A DNA stretch of 64,000 bases from Candidatus Moanibacter sp. (GTDB lineage Bacteria; Verrucomicrobiota; Verrucomicrobiia; Opitutales; UBA2987): contig CBDCEW010000090.1 in assembly GCA_965215885.1 (NCBI GenBank), positions 1 through 64,000 on the forward strand. The letters run 5' to 3'. Below the pieces are notes generated by a model that was not told the DNA's origin, searched no databases, and saw nothing but the letters and a program-made list of their open reading frames with translations. Both the position numbers and the translations under genes were made by a program. How positions within the stretch are numbered: position 1 is the stretch's first letter; each line of letters starts with the position of its first letter. Below, one piece after another: positions 22,433 through 38,490 of this stretch.

Positions 22433-24015
22433 GACCCCATTCGAAAAGCCTTTGAGCGGACGGTTTCAGGTTTTCCGCCACAGGCGGAAGCCTATGGCTG
22501 GCAGGCGTCGGGTTTCAGACGCGCAAGCAGAGCGGCCAACAATACGATGCCGCTGTTTGGAGGCATACTCATTTTCCGAGCTGCAAAGCGGTGATTCAGG
22601 CCGCCTGTTCCAGTCGTCGCAGTATGATAGTTTAGGCCAGAACCTTCTGTTCATCGCTTCGATGCCGCGGCGGCCGAGTTCGCCAAAGGCAAATCCATCT
22701 TTAAACATCAACTCCATGCGGAGCGAGCCTCGCGATACTCAACTTCTTGCCCTTCGCCCCACTGATACTGCGAAACCTCCTTGCGCCTCTTCGCCGATTT
22801 GTAATTTGCGGTGCTTATTTGAGAAATTGAACGATTTACCGTTTTCGCTGCGATACTTATTCTTCTTACAGTTTGACGGTAGCTTCTTTTCGTGAAACAC
22901 CCGTCATGAGCATACTCAACAACCCGCTTGGCGTCGGCAATTTCGCGCCTGATCTGGCTCAATACCCGCCAGAAGCTCCCGGCGAGTGGGAGGCAGTGAA
23001 TCCATCGACAGGCCCTCTTCAAGATGGCTCAGTTCCCCCGTTAGTGAGTCGGCCGCCTTGCGGCCCCGCTTGAGCAACCGCCGGTAGTGTTTCTTCAGCT
23101 TGCCCTTCGACTTCGGTTTGCCCGCGGCCAGACAAATCTGAAACTCCAGCTTGTCCATTTCCTCCAGCCAACGCCCAACCCATCCCTTGCGAAAATCCTC
23201 CAGCCCGAAGACATGCAACTTCTGACCCAAACGATTGGCCCGCATCAAAAGACCGCTCAGAATCTTCCCATCGGTGGGCCAGCAGCTGTTTGCTTTCACC
23301 GAGGTGCTGTCGATCGTCAGCTTCCCGAAATCGTCCCATTGCTCCTGGAGGATAAACCCAATCTGTTTATCAAAGATCAACTCGCGGGTCCTATGGCTGA
23401 CCAGGTTCACGTTCTCCAGAATCGTCGTCACCGCCGGCATTCTCAGTCCCCCGCTCTGCAAAAATCCGTACAAGCGCATCGACTCGCGCAGAAACCGCCG
23501 TGCCGGTTTCGTGGTCAACTGAACCCAGAAACCCTCGAAGCATCACGAACACGTATACCGCATAAGCCGGCATCCGCGGCCGGCCTGCCCCAAGATTCAA
23601 TTCAGCAGCCAGAATATTCTCCTCCTCGATGTCCAGCTCCGGCAGCTCCGCTGTGCGCCCTTCAAAGAACCTGCGATCTTCCAATCGAAGTTTCTTCTTC
23701 TCACGCGCATGGGCGTCCAGATCCTTCTCGATCGCCTCGATGATTTGCGCCGCGAACCCGGTCAATTCTTCAACTTGGAAAATCACGGAAATCCGTGTCT
23801 GGAACCGGCAGAATGAGGTTGCTAAGGGGCGTCTTGTCGCTTTTGTTCTCCTCTGTCGCACATGTTGGCATGTTTAACTCCTTTCTTAATCTTAAGTTGT
23901 TAAACACTAGTATGTTACGACACTTTTGATCAAGCCGAAAAACTGATTTTTCTCAAGTTTTTCTTGCGCTTTTTGCGCCTCTTTGCGGCAAATCAGTAGC
24001 TTTTCGGATAAGGTC
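22433..24015 (-). mobile_element. degenerate or chimeric copy of the 1,917-bp IS
   Basis: Ends gaccccattcgaaaagc / gcttttcggataaggtc; TSD tagaaa on both sides; many deletions and frameshifts. Confidence 0.85.
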
Positions 24016-25994: not shown

Positions 25995-27911
25995 GACCCC
26001 ATTCGAAAAGCCTTTCGAGCGGGCGGTTTAAGGTTCTCCGCCACGGGCGGACCAGCCTATGGCTGGCAGGTTTCGGGTTTTAGGCTGCCGGCGCTGCCGA
26101 TGAGCAGGTATTGAGCGGCCATCGGCGTGGCTTGCTGCACAATACGTATATTTGCCGCTGTCTGGAGGCATACTCATCCCGTGGTGCTTTTTTCTCTGAG
26201 CTTCAAAGCGGTCAGATTCAGGCTGCCTGTTCCAGTTCCTCCCCTCGGCGTTTCTTCATCAGTATGATGCGGCAGAAGTTGTAGGCCAGAACCTTCTCGA
26301 GCAGTTCATCGCCTACCGCATCGATGCCGCGGCGGCCGAGTTCGCCAAAGGCAAATCCATCTTTAATCGTGAACATCAGCGACTCCACTGCGGAGCGATC
26401 GCGGCGTGCCTCGCGATACGCCTCGCTCTCCCAGTCCTCGGGGGTGGTCAACTTCTTGCCCTTCGCCCCACTGATACTGATCTGCTTTACCCCCATGCTC
26501 AGCACCTCCTTGCGTCCCTTCGCCGAAGCATATCCGTCATCGGTGCTGACCAGTTCAGCAATGACACCGGTGCGCTTGATCGAATCGCCGATGGCCGGCG
26601 CCAGCTCAATGGAGTCTGCCGCGTTGCCTTGCGGTACGATCAGGCTGGTGACAAAACCGTTTTCGCTGCGAACCAGTTGTGGCTTGTACCCGATCACTGG
26701 ATTGCGGCTGCCCTTCTTGATGTAGGCCGCCGATCCGTCCGAGAGGCTCAGGACCTTCTGTGTGGACGGTAGCTTCTTTTCGTGAAACACCCGATCATGA
26801 GCATACTCAACAACCCGCTTGGCGTCGGCAATATCACCCCTGATCTGGCTCAATGCCCGCTCCAGAAGCTCCCGGCGAGTGGGAGGCAGTGAATCCATCG
26901 ACAGGCCCTCTTCAAGATGGCTCAGTTCCCCCGTTAGTGAGTCGGCCGCCTTGCGGCCCCGCTTGAGCAACCGCCGGTAGTGTTTCTTCAGCTTGCCCTT
27001 CGACTTCGGTTTGCCCGCGGCCAGACAAATCTGAAACTCCAGCTTGTCCATTTCCTCCAGCCAACGCCCAACCCATCCCTTGCGAAAATCCTCCAGCCCG
27101 AAGACATGCAACTTCTGACCCAAACGATTGGCCCGCATCAAAAGACCGCTCAGAATCTTCCCATCGGTGGGCCAGCAGCTGTTTGCTTTCACCGAGGTGC
27201 TGTCGATCGTCAGCTTCCCGAAATCGTCCCATTGCTCCTGGAGGATAAACCCAATCTGTTTATCAAAGATCAACTCGCGGGTCGTATGGCTGACCAGGTT
27301 CACGTTCTCCAGAATCGTCGTCACCGCCGGCATTCTCAGTCCCCCGCTCTGCAAAAATCCGTACAAGCTCATCGACTCGCGCACAAACCGCCGTGCCGGT
27401 TTCGTGGTCAACGAACCCAGAAACCCTCGAATCATCACGAACACGTATACCGCATAAGCCGGCATCCGCGGCCGGCCTGCCCCAAGATTCAATTCAGCAG
27501 CCAGAATATTCTCCTCCTCGATGTCCAGCTCCGGCAGCTCCGCTGTGCGCCCTTCAAAGAACCTTCGATCTTCCAATCGAAGTTTCTTCTTCTCACGCGC
27601 ATGGGCGTCCAGATCCTTCTCGATCGCCTCGATGATTTGCGCCGCGAACCCGGCCAATTCTTCAACTTCATCCAGAAAATCACGGAAATCCGTGTCTGGA
27701 ACCGGCAGAATGAGGTTGCTAAGGGGCGTCTTATCGCTTTTGTTCTCCTCTGTCGCACATGTTGGCATGTTTAACTCCTTTCTTAATCTTAGGTTGTTAA
27801 ACACTAGCATGTTGCGACACTTTTTATCAAGCCAAAAAATGATTTTTCTCAAGTTTTTCTTGCGCCTTTTGCGCCTCTTTGCGGCCAATCAGTAGCTTTT
27901 CGGATAAGGTC
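25995..27911 (-). mobile_element. IS (ISNCY/IS5-like), 1,917 bp, copy A
   Basis: Imperfect 17-bp IRs; near-identical to 36574-38490 and 38497-40413. Confidence 0.93.
26218..27768 (-). CDS. DDE transposase, 516 aa
   Basis: IDSTSVKANSCWPTD, STDDGY and RSAVESLMFTIK motifs; RBS aaggag before MPTC. Confidence 0.9.
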   Translation of the reverse strand: MPTCATEENKSDKTPLSNLILPVPDTDFRDFLDEVEELAGFAAQIIEAIEKDLDAHAREKKKLRLEDRRFFEGRTAELPELDIEEENILAAELNLGAGRPRMPAYAVYVFVMIRGFLGSLTTKPARRFVRESMSLYGFLQSGGLRMPAVTTILENVNLVSHTTRELIFDKQIGFILQEQWDDFGKLTIDSTSVKANSCWPTDGKILSGLLMRANRLGQKLHVFGLEDFRKGWVGRWLEEMDKLEFQICLAAGKPKSKGKLKKHYRRLLKRGRKAADSLTGELSHLEEGLSMDSLPPTRRELLERALSQIRGDIADAKRVVEYAHDRVFHEKKLPSTQKVLSLSDGSAAYIKKGSRNPVIGYKPQLVRSENGFVTSLIVPQGNAADSIELAPAIGDSIKRTGVIAELVSTDDGYASAKGRKEVLSMGVKQISISGAKGKKLTTPEDWESEAYREARRDRSAVESLMFTIKDGFAFGELGRRGIDAVGDELLEKVLAYNFCRIILMKKRRGEELEQAA

Positions 27912-27989
27912 TAACTAACTTCAATTTCTGTTCTCATATGAAAGTTGTAAGCTTCGCGCTGGTGGTATTCGTATAAAGTACCTGTCCCT

Positions 27990-28601
27990 TATAACTGCTC
28001 AACCATTGGCGAATGCTTTCCAAGGCCTTTTGGGCACTTCGTCCACGCCGGAACCCGTAGGAGCCCTCAATGAAGTCGATCTCATAGATCGGCTCCAACA
28101 GCATCACTACGGCCCGTTCCAGTACCTTGTTCTCGGTGGTGGGGATTCCGCTCCATACGCTTCGTGCCGCCATCGCTGTACGACTATCCCGCTGAGCGGG
28201 ATTCGCTTCCGGCTGCTTGCCAGGCTTTGCCGGGTGGGAGTGATTACCCACCGGATAACTTCAACTCCTTTCAATATGTTCATAGGTTCCATATTTCCCG
28301 CAGTTCCAGACGCTCCGCTCCCGCAGATCTTTCACGGCGCGACGTAAGCTTCGTCGCGAGCTTTCTCGTCAACTTTGTCGTCCTTTTCGGTCGATCCTCC
28401 GACCAAACTTACGACGTGTCGGATTGGTACGCTGAGCACCGTCAGGCGTAGGAAGGTCGCTTGCGACCGAATAGAAAGCCGGTGTCCATCGCTCGAGAGC
28501 GAGCTTCCTACCCTCACGGTAATTCTCGCGACAAAGTTTGGAGGGAGTTTCCCACCCGTAAGGGAACCTTCGTCGTAAGTCCCGCTGAGCGGGATCGTCA
28601 A
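27990..28601 (-). mobile_element. group II intron remnant (5' RNA portion plus short reverse transcriptase fragment)
   Basis: GIPTTENKVLERAVVMLLEPIYEIDFIEGSYGFRRGRSAQKAL (RT domain 2/2a); structured upstream non-coding sequence; no YADD. Confidence 0.75.
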
Positions 28602-28677
28602 CCTAGTCGCTCTGCTTTGGGTGTAGGAGCGGCTTTACGCCGCGATGGGAGGCTTTTTATAGAGATATCGGCGGTGA

Positions 28678-29814
28678 CTATTTCCCATAGGGATCGGCGG
28701 CGTCGCGTAATCCATCGCCGAGGAAATTAAAGGCGAGCACGGCGAGGATGACAAAGACGGCAGGGGTTAAAAGCCACGGCTGCAAAGCCACCGCCTGTAC
28801 GTTCTGGGCCTCCTTGAGGAGGACGCCCCAACTGGTAATGGGTGGGCGCAGCCCGAGACCGAGGAAACTCAAGGCCGTTTCGCCCAGAATCATGGCGGGT
28901 AACGTCAAGGTGAGGCTGACGATGATATGGCTGGTAAAGCCGGGCAAGAGATGCCGCACCATGATGCGCGTGTTGCTTGCACCACAAATGAGCGCGGCTG
29001 TCGCGTAGTCCTCCTCTCGCAGGGAGAGGATCTTGCCCCGTACCACCCGGGCCAATCCGGTCCAGCCAAGAAAAGAAAGCACGACGGTGATGCCGAAATA
29101 GACTTGAAGGGGCGACCAGGTGGCGGGAAGAGCGGCGGAGAGAGCCATCCACAAGGGAATGGAAGGAAATGAGCGCAGGATTTCGATAAATCGCTGTATT
29201 GAATGGTCAACCCAACCGCCGTAATACCCCGAGACGGCGCCAAAAAGAAGGCCGAAAAAGAAGCTCATCGCCACGCCTACGAGGCCAACCGTCAGGGAGA
29301 TACGCGCCCCGTAGATGATTCGGCTGAACAGGTCGCGGCCCAGTGAATCGGCACCCAGCAGGAACACAGTAGCGCCCGGCTCCACTCCGAATAGATGCAG
29401 ATCCGTATCGAAAGTGCCCCAGAACCGGTAGGTTTCGCCTCGAACAAATAATCTCAATGGGTAGGTGCGGCTGCGATCCTCCACGTAAATCCGCTGCAGG
29501 GTCTCCGGATGGCGCGCACCCTTCAAAGCATAGACGAAGGGCCACAGGTGCAGACCCTGGTCGCTGACTAGATGCAGGCGTTGGGGCGGGGCGTAAATGT
29601 AGGGAATATTCCTGGAATCGAGCGTGTAGGGAGCCAGGAACTCACAAAATAGCGCTACCAGGTAGAGAGCGAGCACGACCATGCCGGACCATACCGCCAG
29701 GCGATGTTTGCGGAATCTCAGGGACACTAACTGCCACTGGGAAAGGGAGCCGAGTTCCTCGGCGTCAGGGGCTGCCTTCGGCAGCGTCACTGGATTCGCT
29801 TCGCTAATCGTCAC
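28678..29814 (-). CDS. peptide/nickel ABC transporter permease (OppC/DppC type)
   Basis: LLGADSLGRDLFSR, ETALSFLGLG and GDGLRDAADP motifs. Confidence 0.93.
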   Translation of the reverse strand: MTISEANPVTLPKAAPDAEELGSLSQWQLVSLRFRKHRLAVWSGMVVLALYLVALFCEFLAPYTLDSRNIPYIYAPPQRLHLVSDQGLHLWPFVYALKGARHPETLQRIYVEDRSRTYPLRLFVRGETYRFWGTFDTDLHLFGVEPGATVFLLGADSLGRDLFSRIIYGARISLTVGLVGVAMSFFFGLLFGAVSGYYGGWVDHSIQRFIEILRSFPSIPLWMALSAALPATWSPLQVYFGITVVLSFLGWTGLARVVRGKILSLREEDYATAALICGASNTRIMVRHLLPGFTSHIIVSLTLTLPAMILGETALSFLGLGLRPPITSWGVLLKEAQNVQAVALQPWLLTPAVFVILAVLAFNFLGDGLRDAADPYGK

Positions 29815-29852
29815 TGGCTCACTTCGTTCGCGTCAGTTGTCATTGGTCATTG
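29764..29852 (-). repeat. TGAC-anchored repeat array, downstream flank of the four-helix-bundle gene
   Basis: GTCA on + at 29764, 29786, 29810, 29832, 29839 and 29846. Confidence 0.7.
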
Positions 29853-30202
29853 GTGGGGCCGATGGATCGGATGTAGCGGTTGAGTTTGATGATAAACCTA
29901 TTGAGGTCCTTTTTGAGATCGTTGAACTCCAGCTCGGAAATCAGATTTCGATTCTTCGCCTTCGTAATCCATGTAATGGTTTCGAAAGCCGAGCCGCGGC
30001 TGTAATAGCAGAACTGTCGGTTCTCTTTGTAATGGTAACGTCCGTACCCCTCGCTGATATTGGCAGCAATGGAATCTGAAGCCTTTATGAGTTGCTTGCC
30101 AACTGCGTCTTTCTCGAAGTAATTCCAATTCTGAACGATTGACCACGCCTGATCGCCGATCTCCATTCCCATCTGATAAACCTCTAACTCCTCAAGTTTC
30201 AT
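29840..30202 (-). CDS. four-helix-bundle protein (23S rRNA intervening-sequence protein family)
   Basis: LEELEVYQ...QLIKASDSIAANISEGYGR...RGSAFET. Confidence 0.9.
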   Translation of the reverse strand: MKLEELEVYQMGMEIGDQAWSIVQNWNYFEKDAVGKQLIKASDSIAANISEGYGRYHYKENRQFCYYSRGSAFETITWITKAKNRNLISELEFNDLKKDLNRFIIKLNRYIRSIGPTNDQ

Positions 30203-30258
30203 TTTACGCACCCTTCAATTTCTATTTCTTCATTTAGTAGCAGCGGGTTAGCACCAAT

Positions 30259-30402
30259 TGACGCTGCCGCAAGCAGCAGCTGACATCCTCCGGAGGAAGA
30301 TTCCTGACGTGCAACAACGGCACTCATTGGCACTGCCGCAGGCAGCCCTTGACGCGCCGTCAGGCGCAAATGACGCGGCCGCAGGCCGTCCTGACAATGA
30401 TC
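30259..30402 (+). repeat. array of six 21-24-nt TGAC+hairpin units
   Basis: TGAC/TGGC at 30259, 30281, 30305, 30328, 30350, 30371 and 30392; the first six are followed by a short GC stem. Confidence 0.75.
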
Positions 30403-30410
30403 GCTTGCGC

Positions 30411-31496
30411 TCATCGGCGTCCTCCTTCAAAGCGGATGCGGGGGTCGAGCCAGAGCAGGAGGATATCGGAGATGAGGGTTCCGATTACAGTGAGGAAGGC
30501 GAGGATCATGACCATTGAGCCGGCCAGGAACATATCCTGATTCTGAAGGGCTCGCAGAAGGAGAGGTCCGGTGGTCGGCAGGCCGAGAACGACGGATACA
30601 ATGACTTCTCCGCCGATGATGGCCGGCAGGATCCAGCCTACCGTGCTGATCAAAGGGTTGAGCGCTACGCGCACAGGATATTTAACCAACAAACGCCATG
30701 GCGCCACTCCCTTGGCGCGCGCGGCGATCACATACAGCTTGTGCAGTTCGTCGAGGAGGTTGCCGCGCATGACGCGGATGAGTGCGGCGGTACCGGCCGT
30801 TCCGATGACGATCACCGGGATCCACAGATGGGCCAGGAGGTCGACGAATCGGGCGATCGACCATCGGGCGTTTTGGTATTCGGGCGAGAACAGACCGCCG
30901 GCGCTGACATCGAAGACCGCGTAGCCGATATACATGAACACGAGAGCGATTAGGAAGTTGGGGGTGGCCAGGCCAATGACACCGAGAACAGTAAAGAAAT
31001 AGTCGCCCCAGGAATATTGGCGGACCGCCGAATATATACCGATGGGAATGGCCATCGCCCAGGTAAAGAGCAAAGCTATGGAGGAGATCAGAACCGTCAG
31101 GGCAAGGCGTTCGCCGATCAGTTCGCCGACCGGGCGGTTCCACTCGAAGGACATTCCAAAGTCGGGCAATTTGAAACGCGGCCAGTTGAAACGTCGTGTT
31201 CCGTCGGCCCCGGTTCGCCAATAGTAGGAACTGTCGTCCTGGCGCTGGAAACCGAAGGGCAGGATGTCGTTCAACCATTTAATGTACTGCTCGAGGAAGG
31301 GCGCGTCTAAATTATAGCGCTTACGCAGGGCCTCGATCTCCGCCTGGTTTACAGTCGCACCCTGCTCTTCCAGGGTCGCGATGTAGGCGGTGAGATAGTC
31401 CCCCGGCGGGAGTTGGATAATAGCGAAGGACATCAACGAGATCAGCAGCAGGGTGGGGATCATCCAGAAGACACGCTTGAGGATCAGGTTGGTCAT
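30411..31496 (-). CDS. peptide/nickel ABC transporter permease (OppB/DppB type)
   Basis: IIQLPPGD, YVIAARAKG and LDPRIR motifs. Confidence 0.93.
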   Translation of the reverse strand: MTNLILKRVFWMIPTLLLISLMSFAIIQLPPGDYLTAYIATLEEQGATVNQAEIEALRKRYNLDAPFLEQYIKWLNDILPFGFQRQDDSSYYWRTGADGTRRFNWPRFKLPDFGMSFEWNRPVGELIGERLALTVLISSIALLFTWAMAIPIGIYSAVRQYSWGDYFFTVLGVIGLATPNFLIALVFMYIGYAVFDVSAGGLFSPEYQNARWSIARFVDLLAHLWIPVIVIGTAGTAALIRVMRGNLLDELHKLYVIAARAKGVAPWRLLVKYPVRVALNPLISTVGWILPAIIGGEVIVSVVLGLPTTGPLLLRALQNQDMFLAGSMVMILAFLTVIGTLISDILLLWLDPRIRFEGGRR

Positions 31497-31813
31497 TTCA
31501 GCTTCTAAGTTAGGTTTCGACCGCGATCATACTGGTAGGTCCTTCTGTGGAGAAGAGAATTGAATCCCGGCGCTAATAATGCGACAAAGCTGGTCGCACT
31601 CATCCAACAGGGCAAATATTCGTTCTTCTGACCCTTTGCCATTTCATGCTCCATTAACAATTCATAGTTCCAACGGTTCAACGATTAATTATCACTATTC
31701 CCTACAGCAGCCTAATGCCGCCCGGCGAACTCAAAGTGTTTCAATCCCGGCTAGCCGGGACAAAGAGGGGAAGGATTTCGTTGCAGATACAATCCTATCT
31801 AAAACGGACCAAC

Positions 31814-32263
31814 TTAAGAGTCCTCGCCCATTATTACAGACTCACACCGCACCCAGCCGGAGTCACCGCTCTTGTAGTGCTCTTTCTTCCAAATGGGCAC
31901 TCGGGATTTTACCTCATCGATGATAAAGCGGCAGGCCTTAAAGGCGGCGTCGCGGTGCAGGGCGGAGACTCCAACCCAAACCGCCATTTCCCCCAGCTGG
32001 AGATGGCCGATGCGGTGATAACACTGGGCCTCAAGGATATCAAACCGGTCCTCCGCCTCGGCCAATATGCGGTTGCCCTCCTTTTCAGCGAGTTTGGCAT
32101 AGGCTTCATATTCGAGGGAGGTGGGAGAGCGAGGCGTTACGGCCTCTCCTTCATTCGTATCCCGCACCCAGCCCTCGAAGGCTACGAATCCACCGGCCCG
32201 AACATCGGCAAACGGTTGCTTTAGATCCAGCTTCTCAAGAGCGGTATCCGCGATTCTAAACAT
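31814..32263 (-). CDS. moaE: molybdopterin synthase catalytic subunit
   Basis: GGFVAFEGWVR, LEYEAY, HRIG and VPIWKKE motifs. Confidence 0.93.
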   Translation of the reverse strand: MFRIADTALEKLDLKQPFADVRAGGFVAFEGWVRDTNEGEAVTPRSPTSLEYEAYAKLAEKEGNRILAEAEDRFDILEAQCYHRIGHLQLGEMAVWVGVSALHRDAAFKACRFIIDEVKSRVPIWKKEHYKSGDSGWVRCESVIMGEDS

Positions 32264-32343
32264 CAGGTTCGTTTTATCGTCTCTAAGAGCCTGCCGGCAA
32301 GTTCGGGGTACGAGTTTAGCGTGATGTTCGGACAGGCTCTTAC

Positions 32344-32604
32344 TCAACCGCCGGCGACAGGGGGGATAAAGACGACCTCATCACCGTCTTCCAATTCACA
32401 ATCAAAGTCGGCAAATTCTCCGTTTACCGCAACTTTCAGATCGTTGGTCGTCAACGCAAAAGCGAATTCGCTCTTGAGTTCCTCATAGAGAGCACGGGGA
32501 GAATCGGCAACGGTTTCACGCCTCTCACTGCTAAGCCCGCGCTGTTCACGGAGCAGGGCGTAGTATTGCAGCGCGACAGTTTTGGAGGAGGTAGGACGAC
32601 TCAT
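32344..32604 (-). CDS. moaD: molybdopterin synthase sulfur carrier
   Basis: YYALLRE, VAVN, C-terminal PPVAGG. Confidence 0.93.
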   Translation of the reverse strand: MSRPTSSKTVALQYYALLREQRGLSSERRETVADSPRALYEELKSEFAFALTTNDLKVAVNGEFADFDCELEDGDEVVFIPPVAGG

Positions 32605-32941
32605 ATCTTAACTGCCAGAAGAGGGGTCACAGAGCGCCACAGAGAAGCACAGAGGACCACGGAGAGTTGAACAGAAGGAACCGGAGAGGAATAAAAAAGG
32701 AAGATTAGCTCCACGGAATTGTTTGAACATCCAACATCGAACGCCCAACATCGAAGTAGGGACCTTCGGTGTTCATGTGAGGAGCATGGCCCGCAAACCT
32801 TTGAATTTCCTGCATTCCTGCTTTCCTTATTCACCTCTCCGTTTCTCTCTGTTTCTCCCGGCGCGCCGGGATTCAACTCTCTTCTCCCCGCAAGGACCTT
32901 CCATTTTCCGATTCTTTCCAAAATTGGCAATGCAGAATGGG

Positions 32942-33559
32942 CTATTCCTTCATTCGAATTCGTTTCAACGCTTCGAGATATTCCTCCTCCGTATTGACAT
33001 TATCGAGCGCATAGGGATTGGGCTGATCGAGCAGATGCGCATCGGATTTATAGAGAATCTCACGAGGAGAGAGGACGTTCCGGTTCTCGACATATTCCAG
33101 CAGGACCTCAAGAGAGTTCGGTTCATAAATGGCACACAAGGGTTCCGGCAACCCATCCCGCCTATTTCGAAAGGCAGTAAAGCGCCTGGAAGGAATTCGA
33201 TTGTTAAGGAGGTAGCGGATCGTATCGAGATCGAGAAAGGGGAGATCGACGGCCAGAACGAGCCAGGGACGATCCGGATGCATCTTGAGCGCCGTCAATA
33301 TTCCGGCGAGCGGACCGGCTCCCGCCGCGAGATCGAAGAGCGGCTTGACGTCGAAATCTACGAACTCAGCGGGCGGAACCTGGTCCTTACGCAACGAGAC
33401 ATACACCTCGGCACAGATCTGAGAGGCCAGCCTGATAATCCGACTCAGCTGCGTCCGGCCCTCGTATAGCAGGTCCGCTTTTTCCCGACCCATGCGCCTG
33501 CTGCGGCCGCCCGCCAGGACCAACCCCCAGAGTTCCTTTTCTTCGTTTTCAAGTTCCAT
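32942..33559 (-). CDS. mobA: molybdenum cofactor guanylyltransferase
   Basis: LAGGRSRRMG..KA, GPLAGI, AVDLP, EPLCA and NVNT motifs. Confidence 0.92.
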   Translation of the reverse strand: MELENEEKELWGLVLAGGRSRRMGREKADLLYEGRTQLSRIIRLASQICAEVYVSLRKDQVPPAEFVDFDVKPLFDLAAGAGPLAGILTALKMHPDRPWLVLAVDLPFLDLDTIRYLLNNRIPSRRFTAFRNRRDGLPEPLCAIYEPNSLEVLLEYVENRNVLSPREILYKSDAHLLDQPNPYALDNVNTEEEYLEALKRIRMKE

Positions 33560-36573: not shown

Positions 36574-38490
36574 GACCTTATCCGAAAAGCTACTGATTGG
36601 CCGCAAAGAGGCGCAAAAGGCGCAAGAAAAACTTGAGAAAAATCATTTTTTGGCTTGATAAAAAGTGTCGCAACATGCTAGTGTTTAACAACCTAAGATT
36701 AAGAAAGGAGTTAAACATGCCAACATGTGCGACAGAGGAGAACAAAAGCGATAAGACGCCCCTTAGCAACCTCATTCTGCCGGTTCCAGACACGGATTTC
36801 CGTGATTTTCTGGATGAAGTTGAAGAATTGGCCGGGTTCGCGGCGCAAATCATCGAGGCGATCGAGAAGGATCTGGACGCCCATGCGCGTGAGAAGAAGA
36901 AACTTCGATTGGAAGATCGAAGGTTCTTTGAAGGGCGCACAGCGGAGCTGCCGGAGCTGGACATCGAGGAGGAGAATATTCTGGCTGCTGAATTGAATCT
37001 TGGGGCAGGCCGGCCGCGGATGCCGGCTTATGCGGTATACGTGTTCGTGATGATTCGAGGGTTTCTGGGTTCGTTGACCACGAAACCGGCACGGCGGTTT
37101 GTGCGCGAGTCGATGAGCTTGTACGGATTTTTGCAGAGCGGGGGACTGAGAATGCCGGCGGTGACGACGATTCTGGAGAACGTGAACCTGGTCAGCCATA
37201 CGACCCGCGAGTTGATCTTTGATAAACAGATTGGGTTTATCCTCCAGGAGCAATGGGACGATTTCGGGAAGCTGACGATCGACAGCACCTCGGTGAAAGC
37301 AAACAGCTGCTGGCCCACCGATGGGAAGATTCTGAGCGGTCTTTTGATGCGGGCCAATCGTTTGGGTCAGAAGTTGCATGTCTTCGGGCTGGAGGATTTT
37401 CGCAAGGGATGGGTTGGGCGTTGGCTGGAGGAAATGGACAAGCTGGAGTTTCAGATTTGTCTGGCCGCGGGCAAACCGAAGTCGAAGGGCAAGCTGAAGA
37501 AACACTACCGGCGGTTGCTCAAGCGGGGCCGCAAGGCGGCCGACTCACTAACGGGGGAACTGAGCCATCTTGAAGAGGGCCTGTCGATGGATTCACTGCC
37601 TCCCACTCGCCGGGAGCTTCTGGAGCGGGCATTGAGCCAGATCAGGGGTGATATTGCCGACGCCAAGCGGGTTGTTGAGTATGCTCATGATCGGGTGTTT
37701 CACGAAAAGAAGCTACCGTCCACACAGAAGGTCCTGAGCCTCTCGGACGGATCGGCGGCCTACATCAAGAAGGGCAGCCGCAATCCAGTGATCGGGTACA
37801 AGCCACAACTGGTTCGCAGCGAAAACGGTTTTGTCACCAGCCTGATCGTACCGCAAGGCAACGCGGCAGACTCCATTGAGCTGGCGCCGGCCATCGGCGA
37901 TTCGATCAAGCGCACCGGTGTCATTGCTGAACTGGTCAGCACCGATGACGGATATGCTTCGGCGAAGGGACGCAAGGAGGTGCTGAGCATGGGGGTAAAG
38001 CAGATCAGTATCAGTGGGGCGAAGGGCAAGAAGTTGACCACCCCCGAGGACTGGGAGAGCGAGGCGTATCGCGAGGCACGCCGCGATCGCTCCGCAGTGG
38101 AGTCGCTGATGTTCACGATTAAAGATGGATTTGCCTTTGGCGAACTCGGCCGCCGCGGCATCGATGCGGTAGGCGATGAACTGCTCGAGAAGGTTCTGGC
38201 CTACAACTTCTGCCGCATCATACTGATGAAGAAACGCCGAGGGGAGGAACTGGAACAGGCAGCCTGAATCTGACCGCTTTGAAGCTCAGAGAAAAAAGCA
38301 CCACGGGATGAGTATGCCTCCAGACAGCGGCAAATATACGTATTGTGCAGCAAGCCACGCCGATGGCCGCTCAATACCTGCTCATCGGCAGCGCCGGCAG
38401 CCTAAAACCCGAAACCTGCCAGCCATAGGCTGGTCCGCCCGTGGCGGAGAACCTTAAACCGCCCGCTCGAAAGGCTTTTCGAATGGGGTC
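36574..38490 (+). mobile_element. 1,917-bp IS, copy B
   Basis: Flanks taacta / tatcta. Confidence 0.93.
36717..38267 (+). CDS. DDE transposase, 516 aa
   Basis: Same protein as copy A. Confidence 0.9.
   Translation: MPTCATEENKSDKTPLSNLILPVPDTDFRDFLDEVEELAGFAAQIIEAIEKDLDAHAREKKKLRLEDRRFFEGRTAELPELDIEEENILAAELNLGAGRPRMPAYAVYVFVMIRGFLGSLTTKPARRFVRESMSLYGFLQSGGLRMPAVTTILENVNLVSHTTRELIFDKQIGFILQEQWDDFGKLTIDSTSVKANSCWPTDGKILSGLLMRANRLGQKLHVFGLEDFRKGWVGRWLEEMDKLEFQICLAAGKPKSKGKLKKHYRRLLKRGRKAADSLTGELSHLEEGLSMDSLPPTRRELLERALSQIRGDIADAKRVVEYAHDRVFHEKKLPSTQKVLSLSDGSAAYIKKGSRNPVIGYKPQLVRSENGFVTSLIVPQGNAADSIELAPAIGDSIKRTGVIAELVSTDDGYASAKGRKEVLSMGVKQISISGAKGKKLTTPEDWESEAYREARRDRSAVESLMFTIKDGFAFGELGRRGIDAVGDELLEKVLAYNFCRIILMKKRRGEELEQAA

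Follow-up and report, generated by a model that had tools for sequence, protein, structure and literature searches.

In Coxiella burnetii, the intervening sequence (IVS) in 23S rRNA has complementary ends, encodes the protein S23p (PF05635) and is cut by RNase III, as described in the part of PMC4990558 that deals with it. Diversity-generating retroelements (DGRs) use a GC-rich DNA hairpin with a variable stem and a conserved purine loop (hairpin section of PMC3240598), and the ligand shown for the DGR protein Avd is an RNA stem-loop with a UNCG loop, according to the portion of bioRxiv 2023.10.23.563531 cited here. In REPtrons (TnpA-REP/RAYT) the unit is described as a tetranucleotide located 0-2 nt 5' of a short hairpin (PMC6006769, in the part on unit structure). 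CGTC-tagged REPs are reported to have a stem of 8-9 bp, a loop of 4-5 nt and a CCA tail, and to occur mostly as dimers (PMC3733652, in the part on these repeats). The STRR heptamer repeats of cyanobacteria are 7-bp repeats that lie between operon genes and can form hairpins, as stated in the relevant passages of PMC2670836.

The family of small four-helix-bundle proteins to which S23p belongs is common and has solved structures, and its function is without assignment; bacterial heptamer repeats are likewise unexplained. The locus described here links both. In the literature searched, which left most subscription journals outside its scope, no description of gene-plus-arm cassettes outside rRNA was found. 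The locus suggests that mobile cassettes lacking a transposase exist in a form not yet described.

The small gene, its arms and its protein

The window is the whole stretch of DNA that was analysed, 64,000 nucleotides in length. The cassette (C90) and its host genes have the following layout:

31496-30411, minus strand: oppB-type ABC permease, host gene (Pfam PF19300 + PF00528; best NCBIfam model Opp4B, below cut-off)
30259..30410, plus strand: upstream arm, seven TGAC/TGGC anchors 21-24 nt apart with hairpin spacers
30203..30258, minus strand: AT-rich spacer (39% G+C) between the upstream arm and ATG 30202
30202-29840, minus strand: four-helix-bundle gene, 120 aa (PF05635/TIGR02436)
29749..29849, minus strand: downstream arm, with three anchors at 7-nt intervals followed by hairpin units of 22, 24 and 22 nt and one final hairpin
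28678..29814, minus strand: oppC-type ABC permease, host gene (Pfam PF12911 + PF00528)

The order on the minus strand is oppB, four-helix-bundle gene, oppC, and the small gene splits the two permeases as the original prediction had stated. The oppB stop codon abuts the upstream arm. The spacer contains a purine-rich stretch resembling a ribosome-binding site ahead of ATG 30202, which is the most likely start of the small gene since alignments of homologues begin there; the ORF caller had picked GTG 30211. The stop codon of the small gene is the TGA of a TGAC anchor, and both possible start codons of oppC (GTG 29814 and GTG 29790) consist of anchor letters within the downstream arm. That this arm supplies the beginning of oppC had been proposed and is correct, but the proposed figure of about 17 codons is too low: counting the last hairpin of the arm, the first 22 codons or so are arm sequence. 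The N-terminal tail of OppC is likewise translated from the arm at five related junctions (L026, L015, L035, L039 and L042). The small gene has a G+C content of 46%, compared with 58% for the host genes. A scan of 29600-30600 revealed no match to a sigma-70 promoter or a terminator.

Just past the oppC stop a palindrome-rich stretch is present (28340-28660), in which a GTAG-tagged REP-like hairpin was seen by eye near 28623-28645. A group II intron remnant lies at 27934-28251 on the minus strand; RF02005 matches it weakly at 28033-28243 (25 bits, below the gathering score of 49; E 3e-4). This match overlaps a short ORF that by eye resembles a reverse transcriptase fragment, and a transposase gene adjoins. 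A DDE transposase occurs twice with an identical listed translation, at 26218-27888 (minus strand) and 36597-38267 (plus strand), ISNCY being the best NCBIfam match, below cut-off. A third copy, in pieces, lies at about 22466-23861 (minus strand).

The small protein scores 93.8 bits against PF05635 (cut-off 33.8) and 89.4 against TIGR02436 (cut-off 24). Its structure model is all-helical, with four helices and a pLDDT of 96, and matches Xcc0516 (2gsc) at a TMq of 0.85-0.89; BT_0352 was also matched. The match to Avd is more distant (4dwl, TMq 0.74, 7% identity). The fold of the model is that of Xcc0516 and Avd, which agrees with the relationship to the DGR protein that had been stated for the family. 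By analogy with these two proteins a homopentameric ring is likely. The dN/dS of the cassette gene between C90 and its paralogue on C5 is 0.11, and by this ratio the small protein is under purifying selection. Family matches were obtained in 113 of the 151 genomes sampled from the class, and the family comprises 2,984 clusters at E<=0.001. At E<=1e-15 only 2 of 41 genomes contain the subfamily of this protein, its own genome and one with a distant match of 35%, so that there is no close relative with the same cassette to compare. Viral contigs gave 15 pattern matches, none of them a relative.

Arm repeats at this locus and at homologous loci

The anchors of the upstream arm lie on the plus strand at 30259, 30281, 30305, 30328 (TGGC), 30350, 30371 and 30392, with a spacing of 22, 24, 23, 22, 21 and 21 nt. 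The six upstream units predicted originally had the right spacings and are more precisely seven anchors bounding six intervals. On the minus strand the anchors of the downstream arm were located at 29849, 29842, 29835, 29813, 29789 and 29767, with the predicted periodicity of 7, 7, 22, 24 and 22 nt. The arm units have stems of 2-7 bp and 3-nt loops and form tandem arrays. The loops are GCA or GGA in the upstream arm, read on the plus (non-coding) strand, and GAA in the downstream arm, on the coding strand. The description of each unit as an anchor plus a GC hairpin holds with two exceptions, as pairing in the first upstream hairpin is imperfect and the loop of the third is 7 nt long. Complementarity between the arms is partial, as had been noticed, with inverted repeats of 31 nt (84%) and 26 nt (85%). 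The last downstream stem shows a double change with respect to C5 (GCCGAG-GAA-CTCGGC here, GCCCAG-GAA-CTGGGC on C5) by which pairing is kept; being a single case within coding sequence, this is a weak indication.

Clusters of at least two TGAC-plus-hairpin units occur only six times in the 6.36 Mb genome. Those with at least three units are the two arms described here and a gene-less patch on C38, and the C5 paralogue is among the two-unit clusters. The inverted TGAC arrays at this locus are more than chance. A hairpin follows TGAC in 757 of 36,100 cases and the control tetramer GTCA in 944 of 36,100, showing that hairpins follow TGAC no more often than control tetramers. This indicates that the units are not a dispersed REP family. 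The patch on C38 (about 69900-70140) is a mosaic of TGAC-plus-hairpin units mixed with other 7-mer repeats, partly duplicated. The genome contains 41 short-period arrays of many words; when a strict rule is applied, 40 of them have no inverted partner nearby.

Homologue loci in other genomes were surveyed among the best 80 of 113 from GTDB and the best 80 of 154 from metagenomes; they are not independent, many being from Mucilaginibacter and some duplicates. An inverted array was scored in loci with full 220-nt flanks if at least three reverse words were present upstream and at least three TGAC/TGAA-type words downstream. Such arrays surround the gene in 59 of 77 GTDB loci and 55 of 67 metagenome loci, and were absent from control windows 1.2 kb away (0 of 68 and 0 of 42, respectively). 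The titles of the GTDB loci name Bacteroidota, Scalindua, Deltaproteobacteria, Calditrichota, Ignavibacteria, Cloacimonadia and Verrucomicrobia. In 59 of 80 loci the neighbours on both sides are co-oriented. The 62 of 154 neighbours that were scanned are ordinary genes without common function, in pairs such as gyrB-gyrA, pheS-pheT and thyA-folA, and include no transposase, integrase or reverse transcriptase. The idea of a small module consisting of a protein and inverted arrays, with no transposase, is supported by the presence of such flanks at paralogues, by an orthologous junction in the relative G006 that is without this gene and by the fold of the protein.

The top 30 TIGR02436 loci from the class have inverted 7- or 8-mers with many other words, and most four-helix-bundle genes have plain 7-mer arms without hairpins. 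Only 17 of 80 GTDB and 15 of 80 metagenome loci have hairpin units, mostly downstream. At L258, L263, L265, L268 and L269 related four-helix-bundle genes occupy seemingly the same type of junction with different 7-mer words. This implies that the repeat word changes faster than the protein. Nested arms were seen at L053, L055, L056, L084, L198, L103 and L107, where one or both flanks contain an inverted TGAC-array pair of their own; these look like gene-less cassettes stacked beside the gene. By eye, the upstream arm of L195 (about 6-190) contains a second copy of itself, inverted, near-perfect and about 55 nt long.

Strand polarity of the loops and pairing of the arms

Read on the TGAC strand, the triloops between anchors comprise 80 GNA, one TNC (the mirror form) and 31 others, compared with 21 GNA, 32 TNC and 273 others in the far flanks. 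The GNA loops are divided into 17 upstream, where the TGAC strand is antisense, and 63 downstream, where it is sense. As GNA is found on the TGAC strand on both sides, the loop polarity follows this strand and not the transcript. Of the 64 triloops only GNA forms a DNA mini-hairpin, according to the triloop data given in PMC13037366, and the RNA counterpart tested there melts at 39 C, compared with 76.5 C for the DNA mini-hairpin. The arm units are of this GCGNAGC type, with a GNA triloop closed by C-G on one strand, and the arms may act as single-stranded DNA mini-hairpins. ViennaRNA DNA energies gave no advantage for the TGAC strand, and DNA and RNA energies per unit do not separate the strands; the argument about the strand therefore takes the measured mini-hairpin data as its one basis. 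A role of the RNA would also explain why GNA is commoner in the downstream sense arm (63 versus 17).

Such a role could be that of an mRNA version of the rRNA IVS, in which the arms pair in the transcript and RNase III excises the cassette, so that the oppB and oppC messages are separated. For both C90 and C5 about 57 pairs between the arms are predicted by RNA folding, and in 63 of 78 loci the inverted complementarity exceeds the best of 68 far-flank controls. The Coxiella IVS, with its complementary ends, a protein of the same family and an RNase III cut (PMC4990558, in the part on this IVS), offers a precedent. However, translation of oppC begins within the downstream arm, so that cleavage without ligation would remove its only start codons, both of which lie in the paired region; excision of the IVS is described as proceeding without religation in the corresponding part of PMC4990558. 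Mismatches between the arms on the mRNA strand show no G-U excess, with 316 G-U against 388 A-C over 119 loci (kept from 143 non-redundant of 184), a test that base composition may bias. Per locus, 36 favour G-U and 61 favour A-C, and this locus has 7 G-U and 4 A-C. In local alignments the two arms of a locus are each other's best match in only 9 of 78 loci and within the top five in 34, and the upstream arm studied here scores 56 against the downstream arm of C5 and 44.5 against its own. Given the absence of a G-U bias and the position of the only oppC starts in the downstream arm, mRNA excision is the weaker reading and is regarded as unlikely. The suggestion that the mRNA could loop out the gene survives as a predicted pairing, but as a selected function it has four results against it. 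The RNA-processing module proposed originally is weakened by the missing G-U excess, by a loop polarity that follows the TGAC strand and by the loss of the oppC starts on cutting. Likewise, the notion that each array is cognate to its protein loses ground, because the upstream arm fits the C5 arm better and related proteins are accompanied by different 7-mers.

At the level of RNA a translational coupling switch can also be envisaged. Pairing of the arms would hide the oppC start, which would be opened by translation of the small gene or by the pentamer binding to the downstream RNA hairpins. This would be in keeping with a predicted duplex that covers the oppC start, with anchors that supply the stop of the small gene and the start of oppC, with the downstream enrichment of GNA units and with the co-orientation of both neighbours at most loci. 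In addition, all five Avd protomers contact the RNA stem-loop (bioRxiv 2023.10.23.563531, in the portion describing this complex). The lack of a common function among the neighbours argues against it, as does the turnover of the cassette at one junction (see below), together with the many opp junctions that are without a cassette. Besides, GNA triloops are not a stable RNA motif as far as described in the triloop part of PMC13037366. A coupling switch is therefore thought to be improbable.

Turnover at opp junctions, a copying model and known systems

The genome contains 13 TIGR02436 matches at 11 places. A protein that is 90% identical lies on C5, likewise between oppB and oppC and with arms of the same type, and a member of another clade lies between oppB and oppC on C94 with a different inverted 7-mer. 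Most of the other paralogues have other inverted words (by eye). Inverted arrays, which the original prediction expected around the paralogues, are present at most of them, with words that differ. Tandem double-domain four-helix-bundle genes were seen at C101:129467-130186, C104:28081-28716 and C72:9397, flanked by longer REP-like inverted repeats and not by 7-mers. Four oppB copies have no oppC match within 3 kb (C94:95601, C2:27872, C97:150797 and C57:779); those on C94 and C57 have repeat-rich DNA past the oppB stop, as if one arm had been left behind.

Between C90 and C5 the dS of the cassette gene is 0.39, compared with 1.5 for oppB and 1.67 for oppC. Judged by this divergence, the cassette is of far more recent date than the paralogous host genes around it. 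The closest orthologous operon found is that of the relative G006, with 79-82% nucleotide identity. Its host genes are closer to those of C90 than are those of C5 (dS 0.96 and 1.24), yet its arms are unrelated. This suggests that the cassette has likely moved, replacing another. Orthologous operons thus do not always carry the gene, as the G006 junction is without it; an empty allele of this exact junction was not found. Instead of the gene, the G006 junction has two short reading fragments that match no NCBIfam model. The N-terminal one aligns with a profile built here at positions 2-19 (E=0.13, rank 3 of 2,109 fragments), and the stretch is likely the remnant of another four-helix-bundle gene. 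The G006 orthologue of the C5 oppC retains a short remnant of the same TGAC downstream arm, which points to C5 as the older site. Informative sites near the ends of the junction lean to C5, by 9 against 7 (30500-30411) and 7 against 6 (29760-29700), compared with 57 against 180 in the body of oppB; these counts are small, and the lean at the gene ends is suggestive of short co-conversion, of which it would be expected.

Among 30 oppC loci the full gene is present in four (L014, L026, L035 and L042), a truncated gene in one (L039) and arms only in one (L043), and many of the more distant loci have short plain junctions. The opp junctions of G006 form a decay series from the full gene (L035) via the truncated gene (L039) to arms without a gene (L043). 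The cassette was likely copied into the present junction from the sister operon. In the simplest order the cassette would have occupied the C5-type junction first and would later have been copied here, replacing another. In principle C5 and C90 could come from different cells, the assembly having 5.5% contamination.

It might be argued that the arrays arise and spread by slippage and ordinary recombination and that the gene hitch-hikes, with no specific interaction between protein and arms. The 41 short-period arrays, 40 of them without an inverted partner nearby, and a repeat word that changes faster than the protein (L258, L263, L265 and L269) are what such a process would leave, and ordinary gene conversion can explain the sharing between C5 and C90. 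It leaves unexplained why the gene is surrounded by the same inverted layout in different phyla, why the loops have an 80:1 polarity and why the protein is under purifying selection, and is given little chance of being correct.

The reading preferred here, to which a probability of about 0.5 is given, is that a cassette of about 650 bases spreads as DNA between operon junctions without a transposase of its own. The arms, exposed as single strands, would fold into DNA mini-hairpins, and a pentamer that is likely Avd-like would bind them. The bound protein would bring in a borrowed copying activity from the host or acting in trans (recombination or a reverse transcriptase), by which the cassette would be copied into a junction with homologous ends. 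The present copy would derive from the C5 junction through homology-dependent conversion between the conserved oppB end and oppC start, by which an older cassette was replaced. The host may tolerate the cassette because the anchors supply stop and start codons and the operon stays readable. The scarcity of hairpin units among the homologue loci, the plain 7-mer arms of most four-helix-bundle genes and the RNA stem-loop bound by Avd weigh against this reading. The locus provides sequence evidence for the copying and replacement of a package of gene plus arms within a short time. A concrete candidate ligand, TGAC plus a GNA mini-hairpin, as single-stranded DNA versus RNA, can be named, and it becomes directly testable what this long-orphaned family does and where Avd originated. 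A more far-reaching proposal, which is conceivable but doubtful, is that such cassettes are a distinct transposase-free class of mobile elements. In this class an Avd-like pentamer would recognise, at its own ends, mini-hairpin arrays of single-stranded DNA and would drive a homing-like process of copying and replacement from one operon junction to another, for which a reverse transcriptase or recombinase would probably be borrowed. One landing site would then be the 23S rRNA IVS, and the heptamer repeats of many bacteria would be leftovers.

A CRISPR-like or guide-array reading was rejected, as each spacer is complementary to itself, only 4 nt are constant and an effector gene is absent. A DGR was rejected as well: the neighbours are oppB and oppC, no reverse transcriptase occurs among the 62 homologue neighbours and no long repeat pair in 29500-30700. 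The cassette shares with DGRs the four-helix fold of Avd (4dwl and 8ub7, TMq 0.71-0.74) at an identity of only 6-8%, and its 3-nt GNA loops differ from the 4-nt GRNA loop of the DGR hairpin (hairpin section of PMC3240598). The repeat word may resemble that of one STRR family. Unlike STRR, the repeats of the cassette enclose one specific gene, contain mini-hairpin inserts and are found in many further phyla. The Gut-1 RNA motif (RF01706) gave no match, and Rfam was empty for the cassette at E<=5 and for 20 related loci at the gathering score. The short stems, 3-nt loops and tandem arrangement of the units also set them apart from CGTC-tagged REPs.

Like the ORF-bearing 23S rRNA IVS, the cassette encodes a PF05635 protein, is of similar size, has complementary ends round the gene and is patchily distributed, as far as these IVS are described in the part of PMC4990558 cited above. 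The long stem of an IVS is present as a prediction (about 57 pairs; inverted repeats of 31 and 26 nt). It differs in being located between protein genes and not in rRNA (27500-33000 and 20 related loci gave no match to rRNA) and in having ends of periodic arrays that supply start and stop codons. Its ORF is under purifying selection, whereas the Coxiella S23p is described as decaying (PMC4990558, in the part on this protein). With REPtrons it has in common a small gene flanked by inverted units in which a short hairpin follows a tetranucleotide after 0-2 nt. In contrast to REPtrons, the gene is all-helical and not a HUH/Y1 transposase, the tag is TGAC and the units are not dispersed, arrays being present only at C90, C5 and C38. 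No RAYT partner with TGAC arms was found, and no TGAC-hairpin cluster is located at any of the 29 Y1_Tnp matches of the genome, many of which are partial or paired. As it encodes no HUH enzyme, its units are not dispersed and it does not lie in rRNA, the cassette is a member of neither group, and combines a REPtron-like layout with an IVS-like gene content.
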